Positions 29,483 to 37,900 of a stretch of 64,000 bases of DNA are shown piece after piece. The stretch's first letter is position 1. Each line of letters opens with the position of its first letter. Origin of the DNA: an uncultured Gammaproteobacteria bacterium (GTDB taxonomy: Bacteria; Pseudomonadota; Gammaproteobacteria; Tenderiales; Tenderiaceae); NCBI GenBank assembly GCA_965602225.1, contig CBFCYE010000008.1, forward strand, positions 7,053 to 71,052. The letters are read 5' to 3'. The notes under the pieces were generated by a model, which ran no database searches, had not been told where the DNA came from, and worked only from the letters and a program-made list of their open reading frames with translations. The position numbers and the translations under genes are program-made.

Positions 29483-30004
29483 TTGTTGTTGACCAAAAAA
29501 CATTTTTTCACCCTCGCACTGACATTTCTCTCAGCTTTGCTGTCCATGCAACAAAGCCAAGCAGACAGCACGTCCAATAGGGCCGCCCTGACCCAGACCA
29601 CCCTGGAACTACAACGAGACATACTGCTAACCCGGGAAAAGCACCTAGACGAAGAACGCATCGGTCTGAACTTCTACCTCAATATCGACAAACTGCTCAC
29701 GAAAAAACCTGACCGCATAAGCATCAGCCTGGCGGGCAAGGTCGTACTAAAACAAGACTTTGAGGATACACAATTCAAAATCCTTGAACATGGTGGCATG
29801 CAAAAACTTGGCGCCATTGAGCTGGCACCGGGCAAACATGAATTCCAGATCCTGCTAAGAGCCAACAATCGGAACATCACCAAAACCATTGAACTAGAAA
29901 AATCGACTGGCCGTGACAACCTAAAGATCACCATCACCAGCTTTCTGCAGCAACGCAATCCAGAAATCATTTTCGACCATGAAAAATGGGCCGCAGTGCA
30001 ATGA
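29483..30004 (+). CDS. secreted hypothetical protein (first gene of the TPR/ExbBD/TonB-like operon)
   Basis: Signal peptide KKHFFTLALTFLSALLSMQQSQA. Probable TTG start (the track ORF begins at 29438). Its stop overlaps the next start (ATGA). Confidence 0.4.
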   Translation: MLLTKKHFFTLALTFLSALLSMQQSQADSTSNRAALTQTTLELQRDILLTREKHLDEERIGLNFYLNIDKLLTKKPDRISISLAGKVVLKQDFEDTQFKILEHGGMQKLGAIELAPGKHEFQILLRANNRNITKTIELEKSTGRDNLKITITSFLQQRNPEIIFDHEKWAAVQ

Positions 30005-31464
30005 AGTCAATCCTCCCGAAAAGACTCTTACCACTGCTGCTATTGACTGGCACAGCACTAGGATGCAGCACCGCCCTTGCCAGCCATATCGATGCCAAGA
30101 AGATTAAAAGCCCACTACTCGGGCACGCCTACTTCAAACACCAACAGGGGCAGAAATTCCAGGCAATGGCCATGCTCATGGCGGCTGACAAACAAAATCG
30201 CCTCGGTGACGACAGCCAGCTCGGACAACTATTTCTAGCCCACAACTTCACCGAGCTTGGCCTGCATCAAGAAGCCATCAATATTTACGAACAGCTAGCC
30301 AAACAGACCAAGAACAAACAAGAGATAAAGGACATTGCCTGGCTGGAATCGGCCAAATTGCACCTACAGCAAGGGCGATATGAAATCAGCCTGGCCTCGC
30401 TTGCCAATATCAAACAAAACCTGAACAAGGAACAAGAGGCTGATTTCAAAGCGGCAAAGTCACGTGCCCTACTTGAAACAGACAAACTCAAAGATGCGCT
30501 GGCAACGCTACCGCGCATCTCGGATGATTCAACCTGGGCCTTATACCAGTCCTTCAATATTGGCGAGCGACTGATTGACGAACATCGCAATAAAAATGGC
30601 GCCATGATTCTGCATCACATCGGCAAGCTCGATAACAATAAAGATGATGAAATCCAGGCCATTAAAGACCAGGCCAATCTTGCCTTAGGATTTTCGCTGC
30701 TAAAAATAAAAAAACCAGCAAAGGCACGCATATATCTGGAACAGGTTCGACTGAAAAGCCATCTATCCAACATCGCCTTACTGGGCATGGGCTGGAGTTA
30801 CTCCATCGAAGACAATCACGAACAGGCGCTAGTATTTTGGATGGAGCTAAACAACAAAACCAACCGCAGCACCTATGGCTACGAAATCCTGCTTGCCGTG
30901 CCTTACGCACTAAGCAAGGCCAACGCCCACAATCAAGCCATCCAGCATTACAAAGCGGCACAGGAACAAATTGATGGCGACATTTACGACATGAATGAGG
31001 CGCAAAAGAAAATCAACAGCGACACCTTTGCTGAACTCATCAGCAGCAACCCCGAGCAAGAAACCAGCTGGCTAGGCGTCTGGCAAGACTCTCCGGCATC
31101 GCCAGAAAATCGCCTCCTATCTTTACTGCTCGACAACCCGGATTTTCAGGCAACACTCAAAGAATATCGCACCCTGCTGCAACTCAAGCTGCACATCCAG
31201 TCGCTTGGCGACAACATCAAACAACTGGAAAAAACGAACATTGGCCAAACCACTGCCGACATCGCCAAACTCTATGTGCGCCAACGACAACTGGGTGAAC
31301 AAACACAACATTCCATCAACAAACAATTTATCAGTATCAAGCTGCAGGCGCTCAATACACTCGACCGCTACAAGGCCCAACTAAACAGCTATTCAGAACA
31401 AATACGCTTCGGCATCGCTCAGGCCATTGAGGGCGGCACATTTAAAGCCGAAGAAGGACTCTAA
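30001..31464 (+). CDS. helical repeat (TPR-like) lipoprotein
   Basis: MKSILPKRLLPLLLLTGTALGCS lipobox; 487 aa, alpha-helical-repeat-rich; 4-nt overlap with the upstream gene. Confidence 0.55.
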   Translation: MKSILPKRLLPLLLLTGTALGCSTALASHIDAKKIKSPLLGHAYFKHQQGQKFQAMAMLMAADKQNRLGDDSQLGQLFLAHNFTELGLHQEAINIYEQLAKQTKNKQEIKDIAWLESAKLHLQQGRYEISLASLANIKQNLNKEQEADFKAAKSRALLETDKLKDALATLPRISDDSTWALYQSFNIGERLIDEHRNKNGAMILHHIGKLDNNKDDEIQAIKDQANLALGFSLLKIKKPAKARIYLEQVRLKSHLSNIALLGMGWSYSIEDNHEQALVFWMELNNKTNRSTYGYEILLAVPYALSKANAHNQAIQHYKAAQEQIDGDIYDMNEAQKKINSDTFAELISSNPEQETSWLGVWQDSPASPENRLLSLLLDNPDFQATLKEYRTLLQLKLHIQSLGDNIKQLEKTNIGQTTADIAKLYVRQRQLGEQTQHSINKQFISIKLQALNTLDRYKAQLNSYSEQIRFGIAQAIEGGTFKAEEGL

Positions 31465-36930: not shown

Positions 36931-36934
36931 TCAA

Positions 36935-37900
36935 GTGAAAGCAGTCTTGGCATCAAATATCACCCTGCCCTGGTCAGCATCGCTTGCCGATGAGAGACGT
37001 TTTCGTCGTATCGTTGCCATCTGTATTGTCCTGGCACTAATACTCAGTTTCACCCTGCCGTTTATCGACCTGCCTAAAACTGACCGCCTCGAGGCAGAGA
37101 AGATTCCGCCGCGACTGGCCAAGATGTTGCTGGAAAAGAAAAAGATTGAGCCACCCAAGGTGGTGGTTCCCAAGCCGCCGGAACCGGAAAAACCCAAGCT
37201 CGAAGAAAAAAAACCGGAACCTAAAGCAGAGAAAAAACCTGAACCCAAGCCGGAGCCTAAACCCGAACCTAAGCCCAAACCTAAGCCAAAGCGCGATGTC
37301 GCCGAGATCCGCAAAAAGGTCTCCAACGCTGGCGTTCTCGCTATGAAAGACATGCTTGCTGACCTGCGCGAAAGCCAGCCGGTTGCAGCACTCAAATCAA
37401 CCAAACCGCTGCAGACCGAGGGCAAGCAAGAGCGCGCCATGGCTCAATCAGTCCTGGTGGCCAAGGCCAGCAAGAGCAGCGGCGGCATCGACACATCGAA
37501 ATTTAGCCGCACTGCCAGCAACAATGAACTGGCTGGCCGCGAGATGACCACCGTCACCAGTGAGATTGCTGAGATGGAGCTTGCAACCGGCCCGACCGAA
37601 GAGACCAGCAAGGGTCGCTCCATGGATGAGATCACCCGGGTGATGCGTGCCAACTACAATGCCATCTACACCGTATATCAGCGTGAACTACGCAAGAACC
37701 CGCTACTGAAAGGCAAGGTGATATTCAAATTCGTCATCGAGCCAGACGGTTCGGTGTCCGACTGCCAAGTCATCGACTCAGAACTGGGCAACCCTAAACT
37801 GGAACGCAAACTGGCGCTGCGCATCAAGCGCATCAACTTCGGCGCCAAGGATGTCGAAACCACGAATGTCGACTTCCCGATCGACTTCTTGCCTGGCTAA
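36935..37900 (+). CDS. TonB-like energy transducer with proline-rich spacer (GltG/PglI-like)
   Basis: GTG start, one transmembrane helix, a (PEPKPEPKPEPKPKPKPK) Pro/Lys/Glu spacer, and a C-terminal TonB-C-like domain (KGKVIFKFVIEPDGSVSDCQVIDSELGN...). Confidence 0.75.
   Translation: MKAVLASNITLPWSASLADERRFRRIVAICIVLALILSFTLPFIDLPKTDRLEAEKIPPRLAKMLLEKKKIEPPKVVVPKPPEPEKPKLEEKKPEPKAEKKPEPKPEPKPEPKPKPKPKRDVAEIRKKVSNAGVLAMKDMLADLRESQPVAALKSTKPLQTEGKQERAMAQSVLVAKASKSSGGIDTSKFSRTASNNELAGREMTTVTSEIAEMELATGPTEETSKGRSMDEITRVMRANYNAIYTVYQRELRKNPLLKGKVIFKFVIEPDGSVSDCQVIDSELGNPKLERKLALRIKRINFGAKDVETTNVDFPIDFLPG
37195..37300 (+). repeat. in-frame Pro-Glu-Lys dipeptide/tripeptide repeat DNA inside the TonB-like gene
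   Basis: Reiterated CCGGAACC/AAGCC units encoding EKKPEPKAEKKPEPKPEPKPEPKPKPKPK. Confidence 0.6.

Follow-up and report, generated by a model that had tools for sequence, protein, structure and literature searches.

Nine co-directional plus-strand open reading frames (ORFs), designated g1 to g9, span positions 29483-37900 of a 64-kb stretch of DNA from an uncultured gammaproteobacterium (contig CBFCYE010000008.1; the whole stretch is referred to below as the window). The analysis reported here, which followed up a preliminary description of this region, indicates that these genes very probably represent a stand-alone version of the Agl/Glt core complex, the proposed ancestor of a bacterial gliding motor and of a spore-coat assembly machine. 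The probability that this identity holds together with a general proton-driven trans-envelope mechanism was estimated at about 0.75. The core is among the few widespread Tol/Ton-like envelope motors without an assigned function, and is a third type of Tol/Ton-like trans-envelope machine beside Tol-Pal and TonB-ExbBD. Both the class and its occurrence in gammaproteobacteria that do not glide, one autotroph among them, were already published in 2011-2013. Our additions are modest: a ninth gene (g1), an Asp asymmetry between the two ExbD-like subunits, a transducer (g9) devoid of FHA domains, a recurrent redox-module neighbour in other lineages, and the identification of cultured carriers (Microbulbifer, Peristeroidobacter and Aquabacterium) in which deletion of the operon should be feasible. 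The comparative survey sharpens the question of function, since it defines a strict nine-gene unit with a built-in asymmetry in its proton relay.

The published description of the core provides the basis for this identification. Luciano et al. (2011; PLoS Genet 7:e1002268; PMC3169522) split the gliding genes of Myxococcus into a group A, which includes gltF and is restricted to Myxococcales and Bdellovibrionales, and a group B comprising gltC, gltD, gltE, gltG, aglR, aglQ and aglS, the core also containing one unnamed additional gene. They reported this core in gamma- and betaproteobacteria, clustered in the order GltC-GltD-GltE-small gene-AglR-AglQ-AglS-GltG, and described it as ancestral to the motor that drives gliding in Myxococcus. 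In Table S3 of that paper, the Methylibium entries are Mpe_A1224 (634 amino acids (aa), GltC), 1225 (941 aa, GltD), 1226 (243 aa, GltE), 1228 (217 aa, AglR) and 1229 (170 aa, AglQ), with 1227 unlisted, and the Marinobacter entries are Maqu_1595 (321 aa, GltG), 1596 (162 aa, AglS), 1597 (176 aa, AglQ), 1598 (221 aa, AglR), 1600 (162 aa, GltE) and 1601 (939 aa, GltD), with 1599 unlisted; Hahella, Teredinibacter and the autotroph Thioalkalivibrio sp. HL-EbGR7 are likewise included. Genes g2 to g9 of the window show the same order and near-equal sizes as the clusters of these five genera. The slot of g2 is filled in the table by the MXAN_2541 (GltC) homologues Mpe_A1224 and TERTU_3747 and that of g3 by GltD homologues of 939-964 aa, while the locus tags skipped by the table (Mpe_A1227, Maqu_1599 and Tgr7_0540) coincide with the slot of g5, between the GltE-like and the AglR-like gene. 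The window operon thus has the clustered order, a GltG-type domain, one TolQ-like subunit (a single PF01618 domain), two TolR-like subunits (PF02472 twice) and the small extra gene. As in the published cores, which also occur in Geobacter and Fibrobacter (Luciano et al. 2011; Wartel et al. 2013), the genes form a single operon in a non-glider, and the published sizes of the GltD-like (about 940 aa), AglR-like (about 217-221 aa), ExbD-like (about 162-176 aa) and GltG-like proteins (321 aa, an exact match with Marinobacter) are like those of the window. Three differences were observed: the GltC-like protein is short (487 aa instead of about 620-670 aa), the operon comprises g1, which is outside the published list, and the host is a relative of Candidatus Tenderia, which was not part of the 2011 genome set.

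The preliminary description had compared the operon with a core made of AglR/Q/S and GltD/E/F/G. This comparison holds for gene order, protein sizes and the C-terminal domain of g9, but the published core has GltC and not GltF. Its inclusion of GltF departs from the literature, in which GltF is restricted to Myxococcales and Bdellovibrionales; g2 takes the GltC-like place, and the 96-aa g5 corresponds to the unnamed additional gene and is no established GltF. Its statement that homologous cores of undetermined role are found in non-gliding proteobacteria is correct and had been reported by Luciano et al. in 2011 (PMC3169522).

The nine genes look like one transcription unit, because they are preceded by a strong intrinsic terminator, that of the upstream phosphoribulokinase gene, and followed, just 3' of the g9 stop codon, by the best-scoring promoter-like candidate, whereas no plus-strand terminator comparable to the one at 29337-29359 was found between it and positions 37930-37957 (Table 1). 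This agrees with the single operon initially proposed. The g1/g2, g2/g3, g3/g4 and g4/g5 junctions consist of a 4-nucleotide (nt) overlap, 0 nt, a 29-nt overlap and a 4-nt overlap, and those from g5/g6 to g8/g9 of gaps of 74, 5, 2 and 4 nt. The earlier statement that plus-strand genes are packed with overlaps or gaps of 0-29 nt is therefore true of all nine ORFs and of most junctions, the g5-g6 gap being larger. The domain calls were also upheld: g3 and g4 have TPR repeats, g6 is a MotA_ExbB and both g7 and g8 are ExbD proteins, while g9 gives a weak match to TonB_C.

To assess the conservation of the cluster, genomes (one per GTDB species) were scanned, which gave at least 600 matches, of which 589 were confirmed. 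The best 80 loci, all gamma- or betaproteobacterial, were retrieved; they form a taxonomically biased sample, tilted towards three families, and derive from Woeseiaceae, Steroidobacteraceae, Acidiferrobacterales, Chromatiales, Thiodiazotropha, Burkholderiales (including Methylibium, as a metagenome-assembled genome, L051) and others. The order g2-g3-g4-g5-g6-g7-g8-g9 was retained at all 80 loci wherever the contig was long enough. Each gene of the operon has hundreds to thousands of homologues; together with the conserved order in these other genomes, this is far beyond what chance would allow. In the cultured Microbulbifer litoralis, the nine genes encode proteins of 173, 648, 937, 214, 93, 221, 178, 176 and 325 aa. 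The comparison of gene neighbourhoods that had been suggested at the outset thus came out in favour of a conserved unit. At 16 Steroidobacteraceae-type loci (L014, L030, L034, L049 and 12 others), a conserved 116-aa ORF belonging to no Pfam family overlaps the stop codon of g9 by 3 nt; it may be a lineage-specific tenth gene, and is absent from the window.

No gene for iron acquisition accompanies the cluster. The large ORFs scanned in the 64-kb window included no Plug/TonB_dep_Rec receptor and no siderophore or iron(-transport) gene, as the preliminary description had noted. Similarly, no recurrent TonB-dependent receptor or siderophore/iron gene was found in the flanks of 81 related loci, which were searched by clustering and Pfam and by inspection of the C-terminus of all flank ORFs of at least 600 aa. 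Consistent linkage to such genes in relatives, which had been named as an observation that would contradict the initial view, did not therefore materialise.

For the transducer g9, profile models agree with this identity. Its 90 C-terminal residues match NF033768 ('AgmX/PglI C-terminal domain') with 69.9 bits for a cut-off of 40, over positions 2-91 of the 92 of the model, and the protein gives sub-threshold matches to the GltG and GltJ equivalogs. By comparison, both TonB models remain just under their cut-offs (PF03544 TonB_C, 22.1 for 24.6; TIGR01352, 26.2 for 27.1), and a phmmer search against TonB C-terminal domains of the PDB gave a marginal match (E ~0.7). The comparison with AgmX/PglI models suggested at the outset thus came out in favour of the initial view, and classification of the protein as a canonical TonB, which would have spoken against it, was not obtained. 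Orthologues of g9 are named 'AgmX/PglI C-terminal domain-containing protein' by NCBI and TonB by JGI. The protein comprises a cytoplasmic N-terminus of about 16-25 residues with a conserved LPW...RFRRI motif, one transmembrane helix, a Pro/Lys-rich linker and the C-terminal domain. In the AlphaFold2 model, the transmembrane helix (residues 17-43; predicted local distance difference test score (pLDDT) ~92) and the C-terminal domain (residues ~228-318; pLDDT ~90) are separated by a low-confidence linker, and the domain has a confident alpha-beta-beta-alpha-beta topology. When this domain was compared with the PDB by Foldseek, the top 16 matches were TonB-type C-terminal domains (TonB, HasB, FusB), followed by domain III of TolA, with target-normalised TM-scores of mostly 0.45-0.63 and root-mean-square deviations of mostly 2-4 Å. 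No FHA domain was found in g9, and the transmembrane helix begins at about residue 17.

The motor subunits g6, g7 and g8 belong to the MotA_ExbB and ExbD families, but their scores remain well short of the equivalog cut-offs. The best equivalog of g6 is TolQ, with 71 bits for a cut-off of 221, ahead of ExbB (50 bits for 206), and TolQ is also its closest solved relative by sequence (E 5e-10), again ahead of ExbB. Proteins g7 and g8 give scores of 20.6 and 25.6 bits with the TolR equivalog (cut-off 127) and 18-22 bits with the ExbD equivalogs (cut-offs 123-153). They are only ~22-25% identical to each other, and each paralogue is conserved separately. The transmembrane Asp of the proton relay is invariant in g8 (66/66 sequences). 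At the aligned position, g7 has Asn in 44 of the 66 sequences, including Asn22 in the window, and Asp in the other 22; the residue is Ser in Microbulbifer. As the Asp is invariant in g8 and mostly replaced in g7, the alignment implies that most of these motors would have a single protonatable site per ExbD pair. This asymmetry fits with an obligate heterodimer.

The five genes that precede the motor encode secreted proteins and lipoproteins, the lipoboxes being read directly from the sequence and the typical signal peptides of g1 and g5 being judged by eye. For g1, g2 and g5, no Pfam or NCBIfam family was matched. Gene g1 was detected at 11 loci by BLASTP with the window copy and at 73 of the 80 with a hidden Markov model (66 of the 67 loci with room upstream), and clustering of the flanks revealed a ~200-aa ORF ending 4 nt into g2 at 58 loci. 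Hence, g1 is a universal member of the cluster, its first and ninth gene, which is absent from the published list of 7 + 1 genes. In the AlphaFold2 model of g1 (mean pLDDT 72), the signal peptide is accompanied by a single long helix and a beta-sandwich of eight strands; Foldseek found nothing significant in the PDB (best E 1.8e-3, TM ≤ 0.43) and gave no functional lead. A g2 homologue lies directly upstream of g3 in 77 of the 80 loci. The short form of g2 (477-500 aa) is found in the window and at L001, L002, L021, L035 and L068, the protein having ~620-685 aa elsewhere; what the short form misses is a charged helical stretch of ~140 aa immediately ahead of the conserved C-terminal QARFG motif, which is kept.

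For the large lipoprotein g3, more than 2366 homologues were counted, which hardly vary in length (~920-1050 aa). The protein matches TPR_6 (7.7e-24) and TIGR02795 with 96.8 bits (cut-off 90.1), a score summed over 5-7 repeated TPR stretches, and reaches 30.9 bits with the full CpoB model (cut-off 383). The best NCBIfam match of g4, of which a homologue is present in 72 of the 80 loci, is gliding_GltE (NF033758; 1.5e-14). A canonical lipobox is found in 50 of 58 g4 orthologues, the window copy having an atypical one. As for g5, homologues were found in 71 of the 80 loci and in 958 representative clusters (50% identity) at E ≤ 1e-3. The protein has a conserved strand-like motif, ELPKVLYIVPWKK, and, about 25 residues further on, a helix-like PVDxxVFRRQ motif. 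In Myxococcus, the N-terminus of GltF is disordered, a strand of the protein extends the beta-sheet of GltG and its C-terminus is helical; the gltF gene follows gltE (PMC11761067). The layout of g5 and its position after the gltE-like gene are the same, and g5 is a possible GltF-like bridge. On a more modest reading, g5 may be a true GltF orthologue, in which case GltF would be part of the ancestral core.

We considered the possibility that the operon encodes a variant of one of the two classical machines. One such explanation is a divergent TonB-ExbB-ExbD energiser serving unlinked TonB-dependent receptors, with the TPR lipoproteins as accessories. TonB systems often serve unlinked receptors, the cluster shares with TonB-ExbB-ExbD the architecture and C-terminal fold of g9, as well as the MotA_ExbB and ExbD families of g6-g8, and the JGI annotation of g9 orthologues as TonB goes in the same direction. 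Furthermore, in Microbulbifer, a receptor gene is present ~9.6 kb downstream of the cluster. Yet, no receptor recurs in the flanks of the 81 loci, and g9 falls under both TonB_C cut-offs (with E ~0.7 against solved TonB domains) while exceeding that of AgmX/PglI. The ExbB and ExbD scores are far too low (50 bits vs 206 and 18-22 vs 123-153), and the obligate pairing of two ExbD paralogues, of which one mostly lacks the Asp, together with five strictly co-conserved non-Ton periplasmic or lipoprotein genes and no linked receptor, set the cluster apart from TonB-ExbB-ExbD. This explanation is accordingly improbable. A somewhat better case, though still an unlikely one, can be made for a Tol-Pal paralogue devoted to outer-membrane tethering or constriction or to envelope integrity, in which TPR lipoproteins would take the place of TolB, Pal and CpoB. 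Both machines have a 5:2-type motor driven by the proton-motive force, an elongated transducer that ends in a globular domain, and outer-membrane partners that are lipoproteins, like Pal. Besides, TolQ is the best equivalog and the best solved relative of g6, and g3 has YbgF/CpoB-type TPR units (TIGR02795, 96.8 bits), its homologues being called 'TolA-binding protein' by JGI. On the other hand, the scores (TolQ, 71 bits vs 221; TolR, 20-26 vs 127) are too low, and the YbgF score stems from the repeated TPR units of the 944-aa g3 rather than from a CpoB architecture. Neither a TolB/PD40 beta-propeller nor a Pal or other OmpA-like peptidoglycan-binding domain was detected in g1-g9 with Pfam and NCBIfam, the ExbD pair is heteromeric, and the fold of the g9 domain is nearer to that of the TonB C-terminal domain than to TolA domain III. 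Moreover, carriers of the cluster are expected to have a canonical Tol-Pal system as well. The earlier conclusion that the operon is neither TonB-ExbBD nor Tol-Pal was thus corroborated, TonB_C, ExbB/ExbD and TolQ/TolR scores all being below their cut-offs, and in genome annotation these genes should not be labelled as TonB/ExbBD iron-uptake or Tol-Pal genes.

Two other explanations concern the output of the machine. The cluster is homologous to part of the Agl-Glt and Agl-Nfs systems of Myxococcus xanthus (gliding and spore coat, respectively), with which it shares a TolQ-like channel that is combined with two distinct TolR-like subunits, a TonB/TolA-like transducer whose C-terminal domain is of the AgmX/PglI type, and TPR lipoproteins of both large and small size. 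That it works as a gliding or sporulation machine is nevertheless hardly conceivable, since the operon lacks the barrels GltA/B/H, GltK and the CglB adhesin, and the cytoplasmic GltI/GltJ platform; no OmpA-like or barrel gene was found in the operon or its flanks. Furthermore, g9 has only ~16-25 cytoplasmic residues and lacks the ~330-aa cytoplasmic FHA region of GltG, and the genes form one operon instead of being distributed over three loci. The core genes are, in addition, insufficient for motility according to Luciano et al. (PMC3169522). Less remote, though still doubtful, is a device for the export or exposure of proteins or polymers, in which the motor would pull on an outer-membrane lipoprotein scaffold and thereby release or surface-expose a cargo. 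An export role of the core was suggested by Islam et al. (2020). In other lineages, genes for large secreted LamG-type or beta-propeller proteins, or for the outer-membrane-barrel-like DUF3570, lie directly upstream on the same strand. Yet, these upstream modules vary with the lineage and are absent from the window, where no cargo gene, outer-membrane pore or glycosyltransferase was found in or next to the operon. Canonical TonB, Tol-Pal and gliding identities were all rejected, on account of sub-cut-off scores, of the lack of receptor, TolB and Pal, and of the missing gliding parts, respectively.

These comparisons leave the Agl/Glt core complex as the preferred identity. Building on the composition, conservation and domain families of the operon, on the fold and membrane topology of g9 and on the Asp asymmetry, we propose a mechanism by analogy with solved TolQR and ExbBD complexes and with the 2025 AlphaFold model of Myxococcus Agl-Glt (PMC11761067). 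A pentamer of g6 would form a proton channel enclosing a g7/g8 heterodimer; in this organism, g8 alone would carry a transmembrane Asp that can be protonated. Proton flow via Asp30 of g8 would drive a conformational or rotary step that would be passed on to the single transmembrane helix of g9; in Myxococcus, an interaction between AglR and GltG was shown by two-hybrid assay (PMC3169522). The Pro/Lys-rich linker of g9 would cross the periplasm and follow the groove of the TPR superhelix formed by g3, a lipoprotein of the outer membrane, and the TonB-like C-terminal domain would dock on g3; the YbgF/CpoB-type TPR units of g3 fit with a TolA-like ligand. The lipoprotein g4 would cap the C-terminus of g3 and g2 would sit towards the outer membrane, the small secreted proteins g5 and g1 completing with them the periplasmic/outer-membrane assembly. 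Finally, g5 may bridge g2 and the g9 domain, probably by adding a beta-strand to the latter, as GltF does to GltG. The output is neither iron uptake nor gliding; most likely, some component of the envelope (a protein, polymer or lipid) is moved, released or exposed, but this is a guess, because neither an experimental phenotype of a stand-alone core nor a functional study of cores outside the myxobacteria turned up in the searchable literature. Published statements on the core are that its function 'is not known' and that it is perhaps a 'basal transport machinery' or 'sufficient for protein secretion'. The paper on Anabaena SjdR was set aside as irrelevant to core function, since AgmX is mentioned there only for a similarity of linkers.

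In addition to this gap in the literature, several points weigh against the proposed identity and mechanism. The GltC-, GltD- and AglRQS-like character of g2, g3 and g6-g8 is a putative assignment made by synteny with the published table; NCBIfam searches at E ≤ 10 with g1, g2, g3, g5 and g6-g8 gave no match to GltC, GltD, GltF or AglRQS models, although such models may not exist. The match of g4 to GltE is below threshold (54 bits for an equivalog cut-off of 225), other TPR families score nearly equally, and TPR matches are promiscuous. All the contacts proposed between proteins would hold by analogy, and as the core has no outer-membrane beta-barrel and g9 no FHA domain, the wiring of the Myxococcus machine may not transfer to it.

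Table 1. Coordinates of the nine genes of the operon and of the signals that delimit it. Start codons of g1-g9 were chosen to agree with database homologues.
Feature	Position in window	Strand	Description
Intrinsic terminator of upstream phosphoribulokinase gene	29337..29359	+	10-bp stem, 6 GC pairs, then TTTTTTGG; 5' operon boundary
g1, secreted protein, 173 aa	29483..30004	+	TTG start; signal peptide; length agrees with database homologues
g2, helical-repeat/coiled-coil lipoprotein in GltC-like position, 487 aa	30001..31464	+	Lipobox ALGC|S; second ATG (492 aa from 29986)
g3, TPR lipoprotein, putative GltD-like scaffold, 944 aa	31465..34299	+	Lipobox IAGC|S; several YbgF/CpoB-type TPR_6 units
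g4, GltE-like TPR lipoprotein, 209 aa	34271..34900	+	Atypical lipobox LYAC|S
g5, secreted protein, 96 aa	34897..35187	+	'Additional gene' of published core; 107 aa from 34864
g6, AglR-like channel subunit of MotA/TolQ/ExbB family, 216 aa	35262..35912	+	PF01618 5.9e-29
g7, ExbD/TolR paralogue 1, AglQ-like by position, 169 aa	35918..36427	+	PF02472 1.9e-15; Asn22
g8, ExbD/TolR paralogue 2, AglS-like by position, 166 aa	36430..36930	+	PF02472 1.4e-16; transmembrane Asp30
g9, GltG-like transducer of TolA/TonB architecture, 321 aa	36935..37900	+	GTG start; NF033768 69.9 bits; TonB C-terminal-domain fold
Promoter-like site ahead of chemoreceptor gene	37930..37957	+	10/12 matches; 3' operon boundary, after g9 stop

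In other lineages, the operon is usually preceded by genes of an extracytosolic redox module. Of the 54 loci that extend over 2.5 kb upstream, 45 have at least one of redoxin, ApbE and DUF3570 directly ahead of the operon on the same strand; examples, all located 5' of the g1 homologue at loci ranging from L003 to L078, are L041:200-7460, L024:109-7185 and L010:4828-6654. These genes are parts of the 'flavinylation' cluster of ApbE, TlpA-like thioredoxin, DUF4266 and DUF3570 proteins described by Meheust et al. in 2021 (PMC8238504). Two further proteins, one with an SH3 domain and one of ~1000 aa of the HZS-alpha/PD40 type, come with the module in Burkholderiales and Acidiferrobacterales. In Steroidobacteraceae and at one Chromatiaceae locus, a three-gene LamG block replaces the redox cluster; in Steroidobacteraceae (L014:1079-6526, L016, L048; ~13 loci), it encodes proteins of ~415 aa, ~840 aa (Laminin_G_3, concanavalin-like lectin) and ~545 aa (no family) and is followed by redoxin or ApbE and then by g1. 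The proteins of this block are possible cargo or accessory proteins. Neither the redox module nor the LamG block is present at positions 27000-29480 of the window or at the closest Tenderia-type loci.

All 20 adjacent DUF3570 ORFs (L003:6253-7407, L009:888-2228, L041:6207-7460 and 17 others), whose stop codon is immediately followed by the start of the g1 homologue, end in F or Y, with an alternating aromatic C-terminal beta-signal like that of outer-membrane proteins. The [ST]GA[ST] flavinylation motif published for DUF3570 was absent from all eight adjacent ORFs inspected. Judging from these C-termini, DUF3570 could be the outer-membrane barrel partner that is otherwise lacking in the core, and this recurrent neighbour is a candidate partner. 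We also considered, as a rather speculative extension, that the core represents a distinct, widespread class of proton-driven machines that was ancestrally tied to an extracytosolic redox module. If this were true, the motor would serve to position, to gate or to energise a redox protein of the outer membrane, and the Tenderia-type operon would be a reduced form whose partner was lost or relocated. Because the 80-locus sample is taxonomically biased, this neighbourhood is a lead rather than a finding.

The remainder of the 64-kb window is a housekeeping region, with genes for, among others, an HtrA-type protease, ribonucleotide reductase, phosphoribulokinase, a chemoreceptor, PriA, arginyl-tRNA synthetase, arginine decarboxylase and a GGDEF response regulator. 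Among the matches listed, Candidatus Tenderia electrophaga is the closest named relative of g1, g3 and g9 (73% identity for g3). Together with the phosphoribulokinase gene, this fits with the autotrophic gammaproteobacterium that the preliminary description had assumed as the host. Directly downstream of the operon, a gene with its own promoter-like site (38048-40078, plus strand) encodes a methyl-accepting chemotaxis protein (HAMP and MCPsignal domains); a chemoreceptor is not among the families that recur in the flanks at other loci. It is followed on the minus strand (40148-44002) by a gene for a 1284-aa fusion of DUF3683, FAD-binding/FAD-oxidase, 4Fe-4S dicluster, CCG and DUF3400 domains, which is conserved at the corresponding place of the nearest related locus (L001:13301-17155).

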